DNA of 64,000 nucleotides from Candidatus Latescibacterota bacterium. Its GTDB lineage: Bacteria; Latescibacterota; UBA2968. Below are positions 1-41,976 of this stretch, piece by piece. Position 1 is the stretch's first letter; every line of letters starts with the position of its first letter. The notes below the pieces were generated by a model that was not told where the DNA came from, searched no databases, and saw nothing but the letters and a program-made list of their open reading frames with translations. The stretch lies in NCBI GenBank assembly GCA_965198115.1, contig OZ240241.1:5856001-5920000 (forward strand). Direction: 5' to 3'. The position numbers and the translations under genes were made by a program.

Positions 1-718
1 ACAGGCCAGTCGTCGTCTGTCTCTTCGGCTTTACCGCGGCGAGGATGCGCAGACGACCTTCGATGTCGATCACGTTCGGCTCAAGGTAGCGGCTGGGCAA
101 ATCGGCGAAGGCGCTGTTGATGAGCTGATCGGGTATTCCGGGATAAGGAACGGTATTGGACATTCGCCAGGATGCGGGGTCCATCAGATCTCCCGAAAGG
201 TCACCCACGACGACGCAGGGCCCGCGCTCGTTCTCACCTGGGCTCAAGTCGTCGGTCGCCCAGTAGAGGCGACCATCCCTCTTCACCATACTGGTGTGAC
301 AGTTCCAGTAGTGACCTTCGAAAAGCGTGACCGGCTCGGACCAGCTGCTGCCACCGTCCTCGCTGCGCAGGAGAAGGAAATCATCGTTCCGGAACGTCCT
401 TCCCCCTTTGTTCACGAAGAGGTAAAGTGCGCCATCGTACTGCCACGGAGCGACGGCATAGTAGGGTAATGCGGTGACGGGCTGCCAGGAGGTGCCATCA
501 TCTCTGCTGCGAACGATGTGCACCCGACTACCGCTTACCCGCTGCTCGCCGAGCGCCTCTCTGTCGAAGCAGTCGGTCCGCGGGGTCACCGCCACGGTTG
601 CGACCCATTCGTCTTTCGCGAGACGCACCAGCCCGGGACTGTCCACGAAAAACCGGCGGTCCGTGTTGTGAAAGACCACCGTGTAGTCCTGCGCGAGCGA
701 TGCCGCCGAATTCGTCAT
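1..718 (-). CDS. Sialidase-like/BNR (Asp-box) beta-propeller protein, 3' end outside the window
   Basis: Translated by hand (not in ORF track): ATG at 718 after GGAAGGGA, MTNSAASLAQDYTVVFHN...; two Asp-boxes SRDDGTSW and SEDGGSSW; frame open to the window edge. Confidence 0.75.
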   Translation of the reverse strand, partial: MTNSAASLAQDYTVVFHNTDRRFFVDSPGLVRLAKDEWVATVAVTPRTDCFDREALGEQRVSGSRVHIVRSRDDGTSWQPVTALPYYAVAPWQYDGALYLFVNKGGRTFRNDDFLLLRSEDGGSSWSEPVTLFEGHYWNCHTSMVKRDGRLYWATDDLSPGENERGPCVVVGDLSGDLMDPASWRMSNTVPYPGIPDQLINSAFADLPSRYLEPNVIDIEGRLRILAAVKPKRQTTTGL

Positions 719-888
719 TGATCGTTCCCTTCCGTTCGACCGGATTCCAGCCACTGGGTTTCATTCACGGTCAGCACTGTCCCATCAAAAGGTAGGGCTT
801 CCCTCGAACCCCATTCCGGTAGGGCCTCGGAGTTTCGATCTGCTTCCAAACCTCCGTGTCCTCTGTGTTCTCAGTGGTTTTAGGGTTT

Positions 889-2460
889 TCAGCACCGCAG
901 CCGAAGTCCCTCTTGCGACATCCATCGCTTGAGAATACGCTGCGATCGTTTGAGCAGCCGGAGATAAGCGGTGTTCAACGTCTGCTGCTTCGCGCTCTTC
1001 GCTTTACCGACGGGAGCGATGTTGTAGCGCCCGCGCACCTGCGTCACCGCCTTGCCCTTCACGTCGACGGCAATGGTCATCACTGGGTGTCGCTCTCGGT
1101 TTCCGTCGACTGCCTGCAGCGACCAGATGGAGGAGCGACCTTTACGGCAGTTTTTGGCGTAGGTCGAGACGCAGTGTTTCATCGCACGACCTTCGCATAT
1201 GAGCTCGCGACTGCTGACCAGTTCCTGGACCATCCAGGTGATGGTTTCTCCGGTCTGGGGAACGTCCTCCTGGATGCGCAGAGGACGAAAACCGGATCGA
1301 TCCCAGGTGATCGGTGCTTTTCGTCCTCGACCGAGATCCTCCTCGGCCTCGATCTCTTGGCCCAGCTCGCCGTGCCATTCTTCCATCTGATCGAGGAGTT
1401 TCTCCACGCTGCGGCCCTTGACCGAGAAGTTGGACTGACGCGGCCCGAGTCGCTGAACCTGACCTCCCGGACGGACGATTTCGCGGGGTGCAAACTTCGT
1501 GTTGTGGATGAAGTCGATGATGGGGTCGACGAGCGACGGATCGACCATCGGATTGTTGACGAGGAACGTGAGTACGGTTTCCCAGAAGTCCTCGTGCTGA
1601 AAATTCATGCCGAGACGCGAGCTCATCACCGCACGGGCGAGGGATTCGCTGCCGCCCTGGCCGACAATCTGGCCCCACCGTAAGGCACGCTCGACCGGAA
1701 GCCCATCGGGCGCGTGGGCGAAGCAGTGGGCCATCATTTTTGTCAGTCTGACGGGAATGTCGGCCGTACGGATGTTCTGCCCATCCCCCATATGGCGGAA
1801 CCAGATCTGCTGCTCGCGTGCGAGTTCCTCGTCTTCGCGAAACCAGGCTGCGTCCATCAAGAACGGGACGTCATAGGTGGCCAGGAGATGTCGTGCCAGG
1901 TGGTTGAATTGGCGCCGAGTGTTGTGGCTGTTTGGACGCCAGTGGGCAATCGGCCGGACCCACGCCTTGTGGTGTCGGGCGAGCATCCCGATGCCTTCGA
2001 TATACGTATTCCCCGGTGTGGGTCCGAAGAAGGGTATGGCGGGATCGAGCCCGAACAGGGATCCGAATCGCTCGATGTGGATCAGCAGTTCGTGTAGGGC
2101 TCGACGTGTCTCGTCATCCGCCGTGCCCTCGAAGAGGAGGCGAATCTTCTCGAGATATTCAGCGCCAACATCATCGCGGCCGATGCTGCCTCGGTAGAGC
2201 CCGGTGATGGTGTTCTGAGGATGGCGCGTACCACGTCGCCTGCGAGAGAGCGCGGTCTGACCGCGAAGCTTGTCCGCCAGGCCTCGCTCTTTCTTGCGGA
2301 GAGCGGCGCTTTTGTGAAGGTCCTTGCTGAAGCCGTGCTCGACGCACCAGGTCCGGTACTCGTACTCTGAAGAAAGACCGAGCTCCTTGATGTGTCGCTG
2401 GAACTGGCGCGCTTTGAGCGCGTGGTCGTGTGAGCGAGTTCGTTTGGGTCCGCGGGGCAT
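889..2460 (-). CDS. PcfJ-domain-containing protein
   Basis: 523 aa; C-terminal ELVSSRELICEGRAMKHCVSTY...SSIWSL...TIAV...QVRGRYN matches the PcfJ-like motif; SD GAGGAG upstream. Confidence 0.8.
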   Translation of the reverse strand: MPRGPKRTRSHDHALKARQFQRHIKELGLSSEYEYRTWCVEHGFSKDLHKSAALRKKERGLADKLRGQTALSRRRRGTRHPQNTITGLYRGSIGRDDVGAEYLEKIRLLFEGTADDETRRALHELLIHIERFGSLFGLDPAIPFFGPTPGNTYIEGIGMLARHHKAWVRPIAHWRPNSHNTRRQFNHLARHLLATYDVPFLMDAAWFREDEELAREQQIWFRHMGDGQNIRTADIPVRLTKMMAHCFAHAPDGLPVERALRWGQIVGQGGSESLARAVMSSRLGMNFQHEDFWETVLTFLVNNPMVDPSLVDPIIDFIHNTKFAPREIVRPGGQVQRLGPRQSNFSVKGRSVEKLLDQMEEWHGELGQEIEAEEDLGRGRKAPITWDRSGFRPLRIQEDVPQTGETITWMVQELVSSRELICEGRAMKHCVSTYAKNCRKGRSSIWSLQAVDGNRERHPVMTIAVDVKGKAVTQVRGRYNIAPVGKAKSAKQQTLNTAYLRLLKRSQRILKRWMSQEGLRLRC

Positions 2461-2469
2461 CTTTCAATG

Positions 2470-2625
2470 TCTCCTCGCTTGGGTCAATATAGTCCTTCCT
2501 ATCGTAGAACAAGCCTGAATCGAGGAGAATGCTGGGTACCGTACACACGAAAAGCACCCTCGACTCGATCGCTACTGGCGGACCTCTGGCGGTGGACCAC
2601 GAGCTCGATTGACGAGTGGGTGCTT
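2470..2625 (-). promoter_or_regulatory. Putative translational attenuator (alternative helices controlling the pcfJ SD)
   Basis: Segment 2613-2625 pairs with 2552-2567; 2521-2528 (UCUCCUCG) pairs perfectly with SD region 2470-2477 (CGAGGAGA); alternatively 2553-2566 pairs with 2517-2533. Confidence 0.65.
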
Positions 2626-2628
2626 CAT
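2572..2628 (-). CDS. Leader ORF2 MKHPLVNRARGPPPEVRQ with RGPP arrest-like motif
   Basis: ATG 2628, TAG 2572-2574; in frame with leader ORF1 (offset 75 nt, no other stop between); weak GAGG SD inside a hairpin. Confidence 0.55.
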   Translation of the reverse strand: MKHPLVNRARGPPPEVRQ

Positions 2629-2682
2629 TTGCCGTGCCTCGTACAGGGCAACGGCGTCGTCCGAAATGTCAGTAAAGCCGTG

Positions 2683-2703
2683 CTATGTGAAGCCGAGGTA
2701 CAT
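2683..2703 (-). CDS. Leader mini-ORF MYLGFT
   Basis: AGGAGAGACG-ATG TAC CTC GGC TTC ACA TAG; strong SD; resembles the msr(D) leader peptide MYLIFM. Confidence 0.65.
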   Translation of the reverse strand: MYLGFT

Positions 2704-2745
2704 CGTCTCTCCTATGTATGGGGTTCTGGCTGACAACACGCTGTA

Positions 2746-2773
2746 AATATAGAATAGGAATCCAGAATGACAA
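2746..2773 (-). promoter_or_regulatory. sigma70-like promoter for the leader-pcfJ transcript
   Basis: TTGTCA (2773-2768) - 16 nt - TATATT (2751-2746). Confidence 0.5.
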
Positions 2774-2789
2774 CCGGATTGCAAAAGGT

Positions 2790-3263
2790 TCAGGGAGATC
2801 GCTCCGTCGTCCTCAGCTGCATCAATTCCCGATCACCACGGTCTTCGACGACCTCGAAACCGAGCCGTTCATAAAGACGCTTTGCGTGTGGATTGTCTCT
2901 CTCCACTTCGAGAGTCAGCGGTAGGCCTTCCTCTTGTGCTTCGTCTATGAGCTGCCGCATCACACGCGTGTCGATGCCCTTGCCTTGATGAGCCGGCAGG
3001 ATCTGGATGCCTGCAACGTGGATCGCATCTCCCGGCCGAATCAGACGAAGTCTTCCCGTGGGTCGACCTTCGTACTCGATGACGTGCGTGACGCTATCCC
3101 TGACTTTCCCCTCGACTTCGTTTCTGGCTGATTGTTCGGTCTGCAGAGCGAATGTATCGGCGTCCCAATCGTCCCTGGTACAGAGACGTTCCTCGTTCGC
3201 CAGGATGTTCACTGTGGTCAGGAATCCGATGTCTTCCTTGCTGGCCGGTCGGGTCTTCAGCAT
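2790..3263 (-). CDS. GNAT family N-acetyltransferase
   Basis: IQILPAHQGKGI acetyl-CoA motif and NPHAKRLYERLGF. Confidence 0.85.
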   Translation of the reverse strand: MLKTRPASKEDIGFLTTVNILANEERLCTRDDWDADTFALQTEQSARNEVEGKVRDSVTHVIEYEGRPTGRLRLIRPGDAIHVAGIQILPAHQGKGIDTRVMRQLIDEAQEEGLPLTLEVERDNPHAKRLYERLGFEVVEDRGDRELMQLRTTERSP

Positions 3264-3730
3264 CAGCTTGCAGGTCGCATTCGCGTGGTCGTCCGCTCAT
3301 CGACGGTTTCGCCCGAGCCGCCGAATTCAGCGGGCAGGCCCACGAACTTCGGCAGCCCATCACAGAGGTCTAGCACAGCCTCGTCACAATGGATGTGGAA
3401 GCTTGCATCGTGGACATAGCCCGACCCGGCCAGAACCATCGCGTAGATGACGGTTCGCTGCGGACCCACCTTGTTCATCAGACTCGAACCACATTCTCTG
3501 CACCAATGTCGGTGTGTTGTGGATCCTTTATACCCGACGAGCAACTCCTCCCCTTTCGTGATGCGGATCGCGTCGTTGCTCCGGACCGCCCAGGCGTTGA
3601 TCGGAGCTGCGTGCCAGATCCGGCAGTCTTCGCAGTGACAGTATCCCGCGCCGCGGGGTAGCCCAGTCACTTCGACCGTGACCTGCCCACAGAGACAGCT
3701 GCCGTGATAGGTCGGTACGTCTTTAGGCAT
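3263..3730 (-). CDS. GFA (CENP-V/glutathione-dependent formaldehyde-activating) family protein
   Basis: GSCLCG, CHCEDCR and WCRECGS zinc motifs; coupled to the GNAT gene. Confidence 0.9.
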   Translation of the reverse strand: MPKDVPTYHGSCLCGQVTVEVTGLPRGAGYCHCEDCRIWHAAPINAWAVRSNDAIRITKGEELLVGYKGSTTHRHWCRECGSSLMNKVGPQRTVIYAMVLAGSGYVHDASFHIHCDEAVLDLCDGLPKFVGLPAEFGGSGETVDERTTTRMRPAS

Positions 3731-3857
3731 TCGTATCCTTCCTTTCTGCGATCGGGCGATCGTCTTAGGCGAAAGTGAAAGCGAACGACCGCAAGTCGCT
3801 TTATCTTGTATTCCTCATTGACAACAAACTGGAGTGTGAAACTTGACCGGAGAGACC

Positions 3858-4847
3858 ATGGACACCCCACGTCACCCCTGCTCACAGGCTTTGCCGGAAG
3901 ATCTGGACATCGGTGAGGCTTGTGTGTTCAAAGACCCGGACTTCACCAACGGTGAGACGACTCTCAGCGACGCAGAGGTTGCGCACTTCAAAGAACAAGG
4001 TTTCGTCGTGAAACGCGGGTTGCTCGACGAGGGCGAGACGTTCCAGCGAGTTGTCGATTACGTTTGGGAGAACGTACCTCGAGGGATGTGCAAGCGCGAT
4101 GACCCCGAGACGTGGTTCGCCGCATTGGGTGAAGATTGGACAGAGGAAGACGAGAGAGCACTCGGGCCGATCAAGCACGGTGGCTGGAGGATGCGGTCTC
4201 GAGACGGCATCGGGACCGAACCGTTTCTACGCGACAAGATCGGGAACCATCCGCAGATGCTGGGAACGGTGTCCCGGTTCACGGGCACCCCCGTCAAGCG
4301 TCTAAGTCGGGTGCGAGGGGTCTACAGCAAGTTTCCACACCTTCCCGGCACGGTTGGTAAACTGGCTCCACACGCGGACCATATTGCGTCGCAGCTTTCC
4401 GCGATGGTTCTCGTGAATGAGGTTCCTCCACGATGCGGCGGCTTCACGATCTGGCCCGGCTCCCACCGTCTCCTGCACTCGCACTGGGATACGGTGTTCG
4501 GAAGTGGCATTGGCCCTGATCGTCAGGATAGTTTTCGAGAAGCTCGGGACTCAGCGCTGAGGGAAATCACTCCCCTGGAGTTTCCGGGCAGTTCAGGCGA
4601 CGTGGTCTTCTGGCATCCTCGACTGATTCACTCGACGGGGATCAATCATTCGGTCGAACTGGGTCGTCCTATCCTGCGTCTGGTCGTGCCCTGCGATTAC
4701 CAGCGCGATGGCGGAACCTGGTTCGACGATATGGAGTTCGGCCCGGGATCGGACCGGCAGTGGTGGATCGACACACGCAATTTCCGCGAAGACGTGCCGG
4801 CCACGGCTGACAACCTCTGGGACGGGTGGGCGTTTGAAACTGGTTAG
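3858..4847 (+). CDS. Phytanoyl-CoA dioxygenase (PhyH) family protein
   Basis: F..QGFVV, PHADH (HxD), IWPGSH, GDVVFWHPRLIHS. Confidence 0.85.
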   Translation: MDTPRHPCSQALPEDLDIGEACVFKDPDFTNGETTLSDAEVAHFKEQGFVVKRGLLDEGETFQRVVDYVWENVPRGMCKRDDPETWFAALGEDWTEEDERALGPIKHGGWRMRSRDGIGTEPFLRDKIGNHPQMLGTVSRFTGTPVKRLSRVRGVYSKFPHLPGTVGKLAPHADHIASQLSAMVLVNEVPPRCGGFTIWPGSHRLLHSHWDTVFGSGIGPDRQDSFREARDSALREITPLEFPGSSGDVVFWHPRLIHSTGINHSVELGRPILRLVVPCDYQRDGGTWFDDMEFGPGSDRQWWIDTRNFREDVPATADNLWDGWAFETG

Positions 4848-4859
4848 ACGTCGGAGTTC

Positions 4860-5817
4860 TCAGCTCGAAACGGGCCCCTCCCGACGAAAGATCTCCTGCG
4901 CCAGGTCGAACACCCGACGGTTCGGGTAATCTCCATCCGCAACATTCAGTACACCGTCGACCTGCTCAACCGAATTCAATCCCACGATCAGACTCGTCAC
5001 GATTGGGTGGCATAGGCTGAACTTGATGGCGAAGGTCGTCCAGGATAGGATCTCGATTCCCAGATCGGCCTCCAGGATGGCTAGTCGATCGTACGCTGCA
5101 TCCCACTGCTCTTCGTGGTAACGATCGTCCGAGGGAAGATCGGCCCTTGAAGACCGGCGATCGGTAAGCAGCCCTCCCATAAACGGACGGATGCAGAAGA
5201 AGCCTTGTCCGTTCGTTTCCATCTGCGGGAAGTATTCGGCCATCTCCATTTCGATCGGGTTGTAGTAGGCGACCATTCCGTCGAACGTGCTCGATTTCAG
5301 TGCCTCCCCGGCGAAACCAGCCGTGTAGGGGAAGGTTGTCAGGTAGCCGGCCTTGCCCTCTGCTTTGAGCTGGGCGAAGCATTCGAGCATTGCCTCGTTC
5401 GTTCTGGCGATGTCCGGAATACGACGATCGTCCTCGTTCGGCCGGGCGCGCTGGAGGTGTTGCAGTACGTCGATGCGCTCCGTGTGAAGATCACATAGAG
5501 CTTCTTCCACACGGAGCCGAAATTTCGCTGCGTCAAACTTCCCGCCGTCGTCGAAGTCGGGAACAGGTACCTTGATAATGTGGTGCAGATCGTGGCGCTT
5601 GGGATGGTCTTTCAGCACGCGGCTCATCGCCCAGCGCGTGTTGTACTCATAAGCTGGAGTGGATGAAGTTGACGCCGCGGTCGATGGCGTGCTCCAGCGC
5701 ACGCTGCCCCTCCTGAGAGACAATGTCTTCGCCCGGAGATTTAGCCGAGAATCGCATCGGGCCGAAGCAGATTTCCGAGACTTCGAGATCAGTGTTGCCG
5801 AATCTTCGGTAATGCAT
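4860..5817 (-). pseudogene. Aldo/keto reductase, two frameshifts near the 5' end
   Basis: ATG 5817 MHYRRFGNTDLEVSEICFG typical AKR start; frame shifts near 5760 and 5650; remainder ..LHTERIDVLQH..PFMGGLLT..SLIVG in ORF 4860-5861; indels could be sequencing error. Confidence 0.75.
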
Positions 5818-5849
5818 GGGTTCCTTTCGTTCGCGAGACAGTTCAACTC

Positions 5850-6107
5850 AAGGGGCAGCACAACGTCCCGGCCGTATCAGGCGCAGGCGTCCAACCGAGT
5901 TCCCATCGAATTCGACCGAGTGGGTGACGCTGTTCGCGACGTGACCGGCCACTTCCTGGATCGCGGATTCTCTGGCATTCTCCTCGAAGGTTTGAGCGTC
6001 CCAACCCTCCTGAACAGACAGCCGGCTCTCGTTGGCCAGCACATTGACCCGAGCCAGGAAGTCAACGTCGTCTTGGTGGAAGGCCGAATGTTCAGTCGAT
6101 CGGTCAT
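5850..6107 (-). pseudogene. Truncated, frameshifted paralog of the GNAT at 2790-3263
   Basis: LANESRL..WDAQTF..EVAGHVANSVTH..GRLRLIRPG aligns with LANEERL..WDADTF..EVEGKVRDSVTH..GRLRLIRPG; acetyl-CoA-binding half absent. Confidence 0.75.
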
Positions 6108-39723: not shown

Positions 39724-40588
39724 TGTCGTGTCCCGCGAATAAGTTTTAGAAGTCTGTTGAGTTTGTCGAGGATCGAGTCAGCGGTTGCCGTCCACACGAA
39801 AGGCTTTGAGTTCTGATTGTATTGGTCTGTGAACTTCTGGATGCAGGTGATCAGATCCTTGACGTTCCGAAAGGTTCCTCGTCGGATTGCTCTTTGTGTG
39901 ATGATGCCGAACCAGATCTCTACCTGGTTTAGCCAGGAGGCATACGTTGGTGTGTAGTGCACGTGGTATCTTTTACGTGAGGTGAGCCAACGTTTGACGT
40001 TCTGGTGCTTGTGAGTGCCGTAGTTATCGGCGACCAGATGGATGTCGAGATCCTTCGGGACGTTTTTGTCAATGTGCTTGAGGAACTGAAGGAACTCTCT
40101 GTTGCGATGTCTGGGCTTGCACTGAGTCAGGACTTTTCCTGATGCGATGTTGAGCGCCGCAAAGAGGGTAGTCGTGCCGTGCCGTGTATAGCTGTGAGTG
40201 ACGCCCTCGACATACCCGAGGCCCAAAGGGAGAATCGGTTGCGTCCGTTCGAGTGCTTGAATCTGGCTCTTCTCGTCTATGCAGAGCACCATTGCGTTGT
40301 CCGGCGGGTTCAGGTATAAACCGACGATATCCCTGACTGTCTCGACGAAGAAGGGATCGTTCGACAGCTTGAAGTGCTTCTGACGATGCGGCTGCAGTCC
40401 AAAGGCTCTCCATACACGTTGCACTGTGGACTTTGAGAGGCCCGTCTCATCGGCCATCGCTCGACAGGTCCAGTGGGTGGCACTCTTCGGCTTCTTCTTG
40501 AGCGTCTTGTAGATGAGTGAGGAGATCTCTTCGTCGCTAACGGACCGCGGACCACCAGGACGTAACTAAACCTTGGTAAGCCCCCGGC

Positions 40589-41976
40589 GGTGAGGTCCCT
40601 ATCCTAGTTGAAACTTAAAGGGCTCCAAACTTACGTTGTGGGTAGACGTGTGAGAGCGTGTACCCGTAAGAAAGGAGCCCACGATGGAGAAGCTATTTGC
40701 AGGGGATGGCGAAGTCAAGGTTGGGTCAGACGTTATGGATTTGGAGACGCGTTTATCGGTGATCCGGGCGCTGATTCCGCTGGGTCTGGAGGCCGTTGCC
40801 GACGTGCTCCAGCAGGAGGTGGAGCAGCTCGCAGGCGTTCGGTATGCGCGTAAGGGTTCAGAGCAGTCGCATCGTCGATGGGGAAGCCAGAAAGGGTCCG
40901 TGTATCTGATGGACCAGAAGCTGCCGGTGGCCGTTCCCCGTGTGCGCGACGTCGAGTCCGATACGGAGGTTTCTCTGGCCGCATACCGGGGGATGCAGAG
41001 GCCCAGAGCGATGGATGAGAAGCTGCTGCTTCGTGTGCTCAAGGGAATCTCCTGTCGCAACTACAGAGCCTGTGCAGAGTCGGTACCCGAAGCGTTCGGA
41101 ATTTCGGCATCCTCCGTCTCGCGACGGTTCATCAAAGCCACCGCAAAGAAGCTGAAGCAGTTCCAGGAACGACCGCTCGACGACTACGACTTGGTCGCCC
41201 TGTTCATCGACGGAAAGAGCTTTGCCGACGAAGAGATCGTGATCGCTCCGGGCGTCACGACGGACGGCCAGAAGATCCCCCTGGGCTTCGTCGAATCGGC
41301 GACGGAGAACGAACGGATCTGCCGTCAGCTGATCCAGGATCTCATCCGGAGAGGCCTGTGCTACAACCAGGGCCTTCTCGTTGTGCTGGACGGCTCAAAG
41401 GGACTCCGCAGTGCCGTCACCAAAGCCCTCAAAGGGGATGTGTGCGTGCATCGCTGTCAGTGGCACAAGCGCGAGAACGTCGTCAGCTACCTCCCGGAGG
41501 CAGAACGTCCAAGAGTTCGACGGAAACTTCAGAAAGCCTATGACTGCGACACCTACGAGGAGGCAAAGGCCGCACTCGAATCACTCAAACCCGAACTCAA
41601 GCTGATGAATCAGTCTGCCGTGGCAAGCCTCGAGGAAGGACTGGAGGAAACCCTGACCCTCCACCGGCTGGGGATGCTCCCGTTCTTGAAGCGAAGCTTC
41701 CGAACCACCAATTGCATCGAGGCGCTCAACAGCATGACCGGCAACCTGATACGGAAGGTCAACCGCTGGAACAACTCTCCTCAGCGACACAGATGGGTCG
41801 CGGCCGCACTCCTCGACATCGAACCACGCCTGCGACGCGTGAGCGGATACAAACACCTCCCGCTGCTCAGGCAAGCACTGAAAAACAACCTGAATCTCGG
41901 CGACAATCAAGATGCTCGGCAGAGAGCATGAATACCACGGAGCCCGATGAGTTTCAACTGACTATGGGACTTGACC
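40589..41976 (+). mobile_element. IS256-family element, copy B (1388 bp)
   Basis: TSD CCCCCGGC at 40581-40588 and 41977-41984; near-identical to copy A, inverted. Confidence 0.95.
40684..41931 (+). CDS. IS256-family transposase
   Basis: Differs from the copy A protein at 3 residues seen by eye. Confidence 0.95.
   Translation: MEKLFAGDGEVKVGSDVMDLETRLSVIRALIPLGLEAVADVLQQEVEQLAGVRYARKGSEQSHRRWGSQKGSVYLMDQKLPVAVPRVRDVESDTEVSLAAYRGMQRPRAMDEKLLLRVLKGISCRNYRACAESVPEAFGISASSVSRRFIKATAKKLKQFQERPLDDYDLVALFIDGKSFADEEIVIAPGVTTDGQKIPLGFVESATENERICRQLIQDLIRRGLCYNQGLLVVLDGSKGLRSAVTKALKGDVCVHRCQWHKRENVVSYLPEAERPRVRRKLQKAYDCDTYEEAKAALESLKPELKLMNQSAVASLEEGLEETLTLHRLGMLPFLKRSFRTTNCIEALNSMTGNLIRKVNRWNNSPQRHRWVAAALLDIEPRLRRVSGYKHLPLLRQALKNNLNLGDNQDARQRA

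Follow-up and report, generated by a model that had tools for sequence, protein, structure and literature searches.

A candidate ribosome-controlled leader upstream of a PcfJ-domain gene in a Latescibacterota bacterium

The gene discussed here encodes a PcfJ-domain protein of 523 amino acids and is found in a 64,000-nucleotide (nt) stretch of DNA from Candidatus Latescibacterota bacterium, termed the window; positions are window positions unless another sequence is named. The gene is on the minus strand (889..2460, ATG at 2460) and has a leader, on the same strand, that contains two small open reading frames (ORFs). ORF1 (2683..2703) encodes the hexapeptide MYLGFT and terminates at UAG. It is preceded by the Shine-Dalgarno (SD) sequence AGGAGAG (2707..2713), which is predicted to be open, and by a promoter-like sequence, TTGTCA-16-TATATT (2746..2773). 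Past the UAG, the ORF1 frame remains open through a linker of 54 nt, or 18 codons (2629..2682), and continues into ORF2, MKHPLVNRARGPPPEVRQ-UAG (2572..2628), which has its ATG at 2628 and is also 18 codons long. Codons 8-10 of ORF2 (2599..2607) encode an R-x-R sequence, here RAR, that fits the +X+ pattern of macrolide arrest. Codons 10-13 (2590..2601) encode RGPP, which sits five codons before the ORF2 stop. In both this genome and a second genome described below, folding predicts a hairpin, H1 (2631..2655), that masks an SD-like GAGG belonging to ORF2.

At the RNA secondary structure level, the leader has four segments whose pairings are mutually exclusive. Segment 1 (seg1, 2613..2626) overlaps ORF2 codons 1-6 and forms the 5′ arm of a long hairpin. 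Its partner by folding is seg2 (2551..2567), which can pair either with seg1 (the OFF state) or with seg3 (2518..2533; the ON state). Seg3 is itself divided: an AGCA(U/C) part pairs with seg2 only, and the anti-SD core CUCCUCG (2528-2521) pairs either with seg2 or with the pcfJ SD, CGAGGAGA (2470..2477), which constitutes seg4. The seg1:seg2 stem is followed in both genomes by a U-rich run with five T in eight positions (2546..2553). This run is a possible weak terminator tail, and in both genomes it can alternatively pair with the pcfJ SD at about -7 kcal/mol. Between seg3 and the pcfJ SD is a proximal TATATT (2486..2491) within TATATTGAC, identical in the second genome, that may be a -10 box or a standby site. 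An earlier note on this DNA had described the promoter-like site, the SD, ORF1, the frame open past its TAG, the segments and the pcfJ SD, and all are present where that note placed them. Not described there are the conserved R-x-R, the masking of the ORF2 SD by H1, the U-rich run after seg2 and the conserved TATATT before the pcfJ SD.

The minimum-energy fold without a ribosome contains the proposed OFF state, with a seg1:seg2 hairpin of -33.5 kcal/mol and a seg3:SD hairpin of -18.3 kcal/mol. The alternative seg2:seg3 duplex, put at about 14 bp in the earlier note, has 15 bp and -18.7 kcal/mol. Scored by the weakest link of the three helices, the leader ranks second (tied with third) among the 1,545 SD-bearing leaders of at least 200 bases in the same genome; the score is somewhat circular, as it was built around the architecture of the earlier note. 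As a whole, the leader folds no better than shuffled sequences (global folding z-score -0.40). An intergenic ORF that starts with ATG and contains R[AG]PP occurs in 3 of 2,953 regions of the genome, and in 2 of 419 cases a short SD-led upstream ORF (uORF) runs on in frame into R[AG]PP. No Rfam family matched the whole window at the gathering score, or the surroundings of the leader at E<=1. The distal TTGTCA-16-TATATT is the sole promoter site called by the scan in positions 1-5000, and shuffled sequences average 1.2 sites; alone, it is therefore at chance level. The promoter of the earlier note is thus present as sequence, but it is no better than chance and does not adjoin the leader in the second genome. 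Inspection by eye against consensus sequences for CIRCE, for sigma-54 and for an internal TTCACA-17-CATTT promoter showed no second half-sites that fit in both genomes, and these candidates were set aside.

One independent copy of the leader was found, at locus L006 of the same-genus genome G001; loci L034 and L045 carry the same leader sequence and are counted with it as a single copy. The G001 leader retains xxxGFT-UAG (its ORF1 reads MMIIGFT-UAG, behind a weaker SD, AGAGAC), the 18-codon open linker, MKHPLVxRxRGPP with RQR as the R-x-R sequence, and all four pairing segments. Twelve nt around the ORF1 stop, TTCACATAGCAC, are the same in both genomes. From the first ATG to the Gly of RGPP (108 bases) there is no indel, and 72 of the 108 nt are identical; the neutral baseline, from 276 orthologue pairs drawn from 360 kb of G001, is 17,676 identical among 41,833 four-fold sites (42%). 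The linker peptide is not conserved, 6 of its 18 residues being shared. RGPP is encoded in G001 with synonymous changes and a 3-base in-frame indel among the Pro codons, and frame-breaking indels are found only downstream of RGPP. ORF2 of G001, MKHPLVVRQRGPP..., has no stop until inside pcfJ. H1 is of similar energy in the two genomes (-11.8 kcal/mol here, -12.9 in G001) and differs in its inner sequence.

The helices can also be formed in G001, where seg1:seg2, seg3:SD and seg2:seg3 are all possible. The seg2:seg3 duplex has -17.2 kcal/mol there versus -18.7 here, despite a changed seg3, and the 5′ part of seg3, which is unable to pair with the SD, is still complementary to seg2. On the four-segment score, 22 of the 1,545 leaders do as well as the G001 leader. 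In simulations at 28-33% divergence, the first ATG, the UAG, the 54-nt open linker, the second ATG and RGPP were all preserved together in 0.07-0.2% of the runs, the figure for RxPP by itself being 4-7%; the simulation treats sites as independent, yet the second ATG lies within seg1. Joint survival is a fair test since these features were named in the earlier note before G001 was seen. The conservation that note asked for, of mini-ORF, in-frame stop, RGPP and helices, is accordingly found in one independent copy.

The effect of a ribosome was modelled in two ways, by splitting the RNA at the leading edge of the ribosome and by blocking only a 31-nt footprint. In the split model of the window genome, a P site at any of ORF2 codons 1-16 gives seg2:seg3 a probability of 0.50-0.83. 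With a transcript to ATG+3, the cost of opening the pcfJ SD then falls from 5.8-7.8 to 1.1-2.7 kcal/mol; with one to ATG+21, it falls merely from 6.4-6.9 to 3.1-4.2 kcal/mol. At codon 18, the ORF2 stop, the ribosome covers seg2 and the cost returns to 6.8 kcal/mol. The predicted entry sites differ in accessibility. The ORF1 binding site costs 3.5-4.0 kcal/mol to unfold here (6-7 in G001), and the ORF2 site, without a ribosome, 11-12 kcal/mol here and 14-21 in G001 at every transcript length tried. A ribosome at the ORF1 stop leaves the ORF2 site closed (11.5-18.9 kcal/mol here, 14-23 in G001). As the ORF2 start is hidden by H1 and by seg1:seg2, ribosomes are more likely to arrive from ORF1 by elongation; initiation at ATG 2628, one of two routes offered in the earlier note, looks hard with the binding site buried in this way. 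Both genomes have frame 0 open beyond the ORF1 UAG. Likewise open is the +1 frame, which ends on a UGA that overlaps the ORF2 ATG, whereas the third frame soon meets a UGA common to both genomes.

UAG appears to be a normal stop codon in this organism. No tRNA with a CTA anticodon (CUA) is among 75 genes found by ARAGORN, a program that can miss unusual tRNAs, and 866 of 3,670 long ORFs terminate in TAG; read-through would thus be an error and not recoding. Recoding of UAG by a pyrrolysine or suppressor tRNA was rejected on the same absence of a CUA anticodon. The genome has three genes of the release-factor family. A separate observation on its tRNA genes is an array of 20 on one strand at G000:C1:2870558-2872531. 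With respect to the arrest motif, RGPP and RAPP occur seven times each in the 1.99 million residues of the long ORFs, and the comparison motifs AGPP, AAPP, RGPA and RGAP 17, 29, 26 and 38 times. This scarcity suggests that the organism avoids the two motifs as others do, according to the available parts of PMC12992588. The same parts describe RGPP arrest as occurring in many contexts, needing little N-terminal sequence, independent of the tunnel constriction and resistant to elongation factor P. The low requirement for N-terminal sequence and the elongation factor P resistance are also given in the consulted portion of PMC10951233, which adds that upstream residues can abolish arrest and that arrest can be species-specific.

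On these grounds we lean slightly towards viewing the leader as a ribosome-controlled attenuator, whether entered from ORF1 or drug-sensing. The best explanation appears to be that a ribosome loads on ORF1, passes the UAG, parks at RGPP and unmasks the pcfJ SD; it is offered tentatively, and in this specific form it is doubtful. Reading through the stop codon proper is an unlikely route, and what further confidence there is in entry from ORF1 lies with slippage or re-initiation. The proposed steps are as follows. ORF1, the open linker, ORF2 and the four segments are present in the sequence of two genomes. With no ribosome, or with one terminating at the ORF1 UAG, the computed pairings are seg1:seg2 and seg3:SD and pcfJ would be off; termination of transcription at the U-rich run behind seg2 may contribute. 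Given the hidden ORF2 start in the computed folds, ribosomes would arrive from ORF1, most simply by in-frame read-through of the UAG, and a +1 slip or re-initiation after termination would have the same effect. From the literature on RAPP and RGPP, an Arg-dependent arrest with Pro in the P and A sites would be expected, the first Pro being in the P site. Seg2 would then pair with seg3 and the pcfJ SD would open, as computed for the window genome only. A ribosome that ran on to the ORF2 stop would cover seg2 and turn pcfJ off again. Under the model any arriving ribosome would park and turn pcfJ on, and the output would report poor termination or miscoding at the UAG.

Several observations weigh against entry from ORF1 followed by arrest at RGPP, and they are given here with the alternatives on which they bear. 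At the level of folding, a ribosome at RGPP leaves seg1 uncovered, and with only the footprint blocked seg1:seg2 re-forms (0.89 here). The opening of seg1:seg2 by a ribosome at RGPP, as envisaged in the earlier note, thus holds if seg1 cannot re-pair and fails if it can. Likewise, the folding with a ribosome that the note called for flips the switch here when the RNA is split, but does not do so cleanly in G001: seg2:seg3 forms there at codons 7-9 only (0.87; 0.35 with a longer transcript), the SD pairs elsewhere, and with the ribosome at codon 12 the OFF state persists. At the level of arrest, six of seven RGPP-motif peptides gave no arrest with E. coli ribosomes, as far as the available parts of PMC12992588 report. 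In addition, a ribosome on the ORF1 start codon cuts the cost of the ORF2 site to 5-7 kcal/mol, in the window genome only and before seg2 has been made, which allows direct initiation on ORF2.

Direct initiation would be the basis of a drug sensor of the erm type, with two leader peptides and no read-through. Ribosomes would start at AUG 2628, either with the aid of another ribosome sitting on ORF1 or while seg2 has yet to be transcribed. They would stall at R-x-R when a macrolide or ketolide is present, or else at RGPP, and the same switch would flip. In the erm scheme, segments 1:2 and 3:4 pair in the OFF state and 2:3 in the ON state, with the SD in segment 4. The present leader shows the same exclusive pairings in both genomes, and in the split model of the window genome, a ribosome in the first 16 codons of its second leader ORF gives ON and one at the leader stop OFF. 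The comparison covered ermC, ermA (ErmAL1/ErmAL2), ermB (ErmBL/ErmBL2) and ermD in the available parts of PMC8274638, where two-leader cascades are proposed for ermA and matter for ermB; two leader ORFs, and R-x-R at codons 8-10, are thus further points of likeness. The +X+ sequence is a macrolide arrest motif (PMC12583479 and PMC6238534, in the parts consulted). G001 retains R8 and R10, whereas no base of the codon between them is the same. With its P site at codon 9, a ribosome lies over the 3′ part of seg1, and at no positions but codons 7-9 does seg2:seg3 pair well in both genomes (0.70-0.83 here and 0.87 in G001). ORF1 is moreover a hexapeptide with Phe5, like MsrDL, and may lend its start-codon ribosome to the opening of the ORF2 site.

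The drug sensor meets difficulties at several of these same points. The effect of a ribosome on the ORF1 start is absent in G001, and one at the ORF1 stop fails to free ORF2 in the folding model, so that an ermA-like cascade through the ORF1 stop was rejected as unsupported by folding. Default initiation of the erm type is predicted for ORF1 but not for ORF2, whose start overlaps seg1. Unlike in erm systems, the target is no rRNA methylase, the two ORFs are in frame across the UAG, and an intrinsic arrest motif follows R-x-R; with arrest at RGPP directly behind R-x-R, there would be no need for a stall that depends on a drug. Chance preserves R-x-R, taken by itself, in 24-31% of the simulated runs. 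The likeness to MsrDL (MYLIFM-UAA), the msr(D) leader named in the earlier note, comprises a six-codon uORF with a strong SD, an M-Y-L start and Phe5 before the last sense codon (MYLGFT; MIIGFT in G001). According to the available parts of 10.1101/2021.11.29.470318 (see also PMC11890864), Leu3 and Ile4 of MsrDL are both needed for induction and UAA is its preferred stop. The likeness breaks down at Ile4, one of the two residues whose loss abolished induction, as both copies have Gly there. It differs further in the Ile/Ile of G001 at Tyr2/Leu3, in the UAG stop and in having no terminator directly behind ORF1. Taken together, a drug sensor, with R-x-R as a stall site in competition with RGPP, appears rather unlikely.

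The RGPP codons pair inside the seg1:seg2 hairpin in both genomes, as the earlier note had observed for this one, and this is a further point against a function of RGPP in arrest. The start of ORF2 and its first six codons are seg1 itself. Perhaps, then, the segments are real and form an RNA-only switch or a terminator controlled by a protein, a ligand, temperature or the speed of transcription, with the mini-ORFs and RGPP as by-products of the paired sequence. Seg2 can pair in both genomes with AGCAC, a sequence present at the ORF1 stop as well as in seg1, and in each genome the stem has a U-rich run behind it; such a switch would also be in keeping with a coding signature that is not significant. 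Its expectations are less well borne out by the pattern of change, since the interior structure of the hairpin differs between the genomes, yet a 3-nt indel leaves RGPP in frame and indels that break the frame are found only after RGPP. The ORF1 SD is good and open, and no Rfam family matched. We consider an RNA-only element improbable. A related caution comes from the other of the two uORFs continued by R[AG]PP in this genome, MYLI-UGA followed in frame by ...MRGPP (L102, G000:C1:5140248, minus strand). It was taken as a chance case, lying in a GC-rich hairpin after a gene end with no long same-strand ORF behind it; the G001 match to the site spans only query bases 355-484 and not the motif. 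Apparently, GC-rich hairpins can spell RGPP by chance.

Codon tests on the two genomes also fail to support translation of the mini-ORFs. None is significant; ORF2 gave p values of 0.057 over codons 1-13 and 0.33 over codons 1-11, ORF1 gave 0.48 and the linker 0.85. Among 24 tests, the lowest p value, 0.045 uncorrected, belongs to an antisense frame, in which 5 of 13 changed linker codons are synonymous. This frame (...VLHLPCLVQGNGVVRNVSKAVLCEAEVH..., ORF 2467-2733 on the plus strand) is open in both genomes and might belong to a small protein gene of which the minus-strand features are a shadow. Such a gene is very improbable: its p value is not significant among 24 tests, the genomes share no start with an SD, the frames diverge upstream of a 4-nt indel, and a word-based search of low sensitivity found no homologue in the protein collection.

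Conservation of the leader is real but not exceptional. Eighteen of 67 control upstream regions, some of which include unmasked coding ends, align better than the leader, and 5 of 67 align over a longer block. The gene behind the G001 leader is broken: codon 48 is a stop, and 28 residues are missing between two LARH repeats. A hicA-hicB pair (L034:2316-2719) lies in G001 between a GNAT gene and the leader, 22 bases before ORF1, and is not present in the window genome. With a broken pcfJ behind it and hicAB adjoining ORF1, the G001 leader may be a decaying copy. The codon-48 stop was rejected as a second read-through site, as the gene has also lost 28 residues that include a conserved Trp and Arg. 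Two further pcfJ-like paralogues of G001 also hold stops (the three are at L006, L090 and L091), and the family seems to be decaying there.

The small number of copies weighs in the same direction, as only two independent ones are known. In its own genome the leader matches itself only (blastn and nhmmer). Among 168 genomes of the phylum, blastn gave two long matches and five more of 20-37 nt at E 0.002-0.009, and a pattern search gave three genomes, the third with three mismatches and without the ATG. A covariance model matched 2 of 131 genomes of the class. Genome and metagenome collections searched by protein gave two and one loci, respectively, viral contigs none and plasmids none (tblastn), and contigs of sequencing runs X1-X3 showed no leader variant and no further leader; no RNA data set was among the sequencing runs listed as containing the sequence. 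Searches with the small peptides returned nothing, or just four unrelated repeat proteins. The leaders of three ABC-F genes, one rtcB gene and three release-factor genes contain no similar uORF; a separate observation is that the same insertion-sequence-like end is found directly before a truncated ABC-F ORF and a release-factor gene (G000:C1:2159771, 2675713 upstream).

By comparison, pcfJ-like genes are found in 74 of the 168 genomes, often as several paralogues, and of the upstream regions of about 200 pcfJ matches, 57 distinct ones were examined and 55 lack the leader; about 18 close homologues (62-83% identity) are known as protein sequences only. A closer relative, P0115, 78-86% identical by region, seems to be without the anti-SD. 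This inference is indirect and comes from a single sequence whose gene was called with 36 extra N-terminal residues: the 108 nt before the start cannot encode TCCTC, CCTCG or GGGTGCT. They can encode TATATTG at -30 and CGAGGA at -14. Likeness of P0115 to the leader is weak, its scores being reached by 7 of 200 and 10 of 100 shuffles, so that P0115 either lost the anti-SD or has another leader.

These comparisons bear on another alternative, in which the TATATT at 2491-2486 would drive transcription of pcfJ and give it a short leader, the 200 bases upstream being a decaying or independent element that does not control the gene. G001 has the same TATATTG, P0115 could encode it at -30, and it is the sole element seemingly common to all three. 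Most homologues have short leaders with promoter-like boxes (by eye), and the distal promoter, at chance level, is not kept beside the G001 leader. What such a promoter lacks is a fitting -35 box or an extended -10 in either genome, and the promoter scan did not call the TATATT. It would also leave unexplained the 7-8-bp anti-SD with a conserved alternative partner in both genomes; a kept anti-SD pairing would be useless if it were not on the pcfJ mRNA, which counts against the proximal promoter. We regard this alternative, too, as having little likelihood. Among the homologues, two pcfJ clades (L008-L033) have short leaders with recurring boxes, GAAAC...GTCT / GTGCATC, that by eye resemble promoters of the extracytoplasmic function (ECF) type. 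A second pcfJ paralogue of the window genome (566 amino acids; L002) has a structured leader of its own at G000:C1 about 4570523-4570760, minus strand, with an SD, a GTG-started uORF MKPRT-UAA that contains a K-x-R motif, a strong GAAA-capped hairpin and a U-rich run. This leader was unmatched among the other loci compared, including a G001 stretch with a broken orthologue, and the gene upstream of the paralogue resembles an ECF sigma factor by eye.

To return to entry from ORF1 and arrest at RGPP, the candidate is well formed, partly conserved and easily tested, and it is held back by having two copies, one of them before a broken gene. The interpretation in the earlier note is partly supported. 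Most components of the scheme are already known: uORFs with RGPP, four-segment attenuators, two-leader systems, arrest modulated by read-through (PepNL) and uORFs that respond to translation stress (toiL). The RAPP/RGPP arrest peptides compared were ApdA, ApdP, ApcA, SecM, CruR and seven Streptomyces lividans uORFs, from the available parts of PMC12992588 and PMC10951233. As in these, RGPP lies in a small ORF upstream of a same-strand gene, and that gene has its SD in a helix that would be broken up by a stalled ribosome; in G001, however, the ORF runs on into pcfJ. The peptides described there are mostly secreted or membrane proteins of 100-300 residues, translated by default and arrested until released; typically, though not in every case, a signal sequence or membrane segments allow a ligand or a pulling force to bring about the release. 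ORF2, in contrast, has 18 codons, nine residues before RGPP, a buried start and no localisation signal, and inspection of the read-through product shows no hydrophobic segment. The regulated step would here be the arrival of the ribosome and not its release. PcfJ is mentioned neither in the main text of PMC12992588 nor in 10 of its supplementary files.

Two other systems resemble the proposed scheme in part. In PepNL of E. coli (PMC11890864, available parts), as here, read-through of a uORF stop decides whether the ribosome arrests; there it cancels an arrest at the stop, whereas here it would bring the ribosome to an arrest 29 codons downstream. The uORF toiL reports general translation stress by unmasking an SD, according to the consulted portion of PMC12121999, and differs in being a single uORF that senses stalling within itself. 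A stop codon followed by an open linker and an arrest motif was not found as an arrangement in the literature searched. If RGPP is reached only past a stop codon, the logic of RAPP would be inverted, with regulated arrival in place of regulated release. The leader would then be a read-through-gated arrest switch, a cis-acting meter of failed termination by release factor 1 or of miscoding, though that is not probable. Candidate inputs would be aminoglycosides, release-factor-trapping peptides and the suppressor tRNA of a UAG-recoding phage. Such a leader would be a bacterial sensor of translational fidelity within 250 bases, open to test by reporter, and through it the PcfJ family would be linked with translation stress or with phage defence. 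A drug-sensing leader would be an erm-like switch on a gene family of no known function. Under either ribosome-controlled reading the inducing signal would provide the first handle on PF14284 proteins; with an RNA-only element or a proximal promoter, this would be an ordinary genus-level leader.

The protein itself has a basic helical N-terminus, a helical middle and a C-terminal PF14284 domain at residues 408-482 (E 7.6e-12, 45.7 bits versus a Pfam cut-off of 25). The function of PF14284 is not described in the literature searched. An AlphaFold2 model built on 66 homologues has a mean predicted local distance difference test score of 88.7. Foldseek gave no match to the model at E<=0.001, a PDB sequence search gave none, and a protein atlas search returned PcfJ clusters only. 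VIA-align with residues 388-523 gave GNAT acetyltransferases in most top rows (best Z 7.2, root-mean-square deviation 3.0, 107 residues aligned), a Z score below the trust level of the tool that may reflect a common arrangement. The C-terminal domain may be GNAT-like in the model, and a role as a modifying enzyme is a guess. A match of residues 16-79 to the N-terminal part of initiation factor 2 (Z 6.0) is short and helical and carries no weight. The analysis provided no support for a link of PcfJ to translation, which is a further point against a meter of termination and leaves the translation-stress effector of the earlier note without support. No connection of PcfJ with RNA-repair islands turned up in the literature searched.

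Two other features of the window may be mentioned. At 5848-6107, the GNAT gene at 2790-3263 has a look-alike in a fragment near 5850-6040 (AIQEVAGHVANSVTHSVEFDGNSVGRLRLIRPG in the fragment versus SARNEVEGKVRDSVTHVIEYEGRPTGRLRLIRPG in the gene), which is possibly a broken duplicate. On the plus strand, at about 40512-40683, an intergenic ORF, MSEEISSSLTDRGPPGRN, precedes a 415-amino-acid ORF that we take to be transposase-like.

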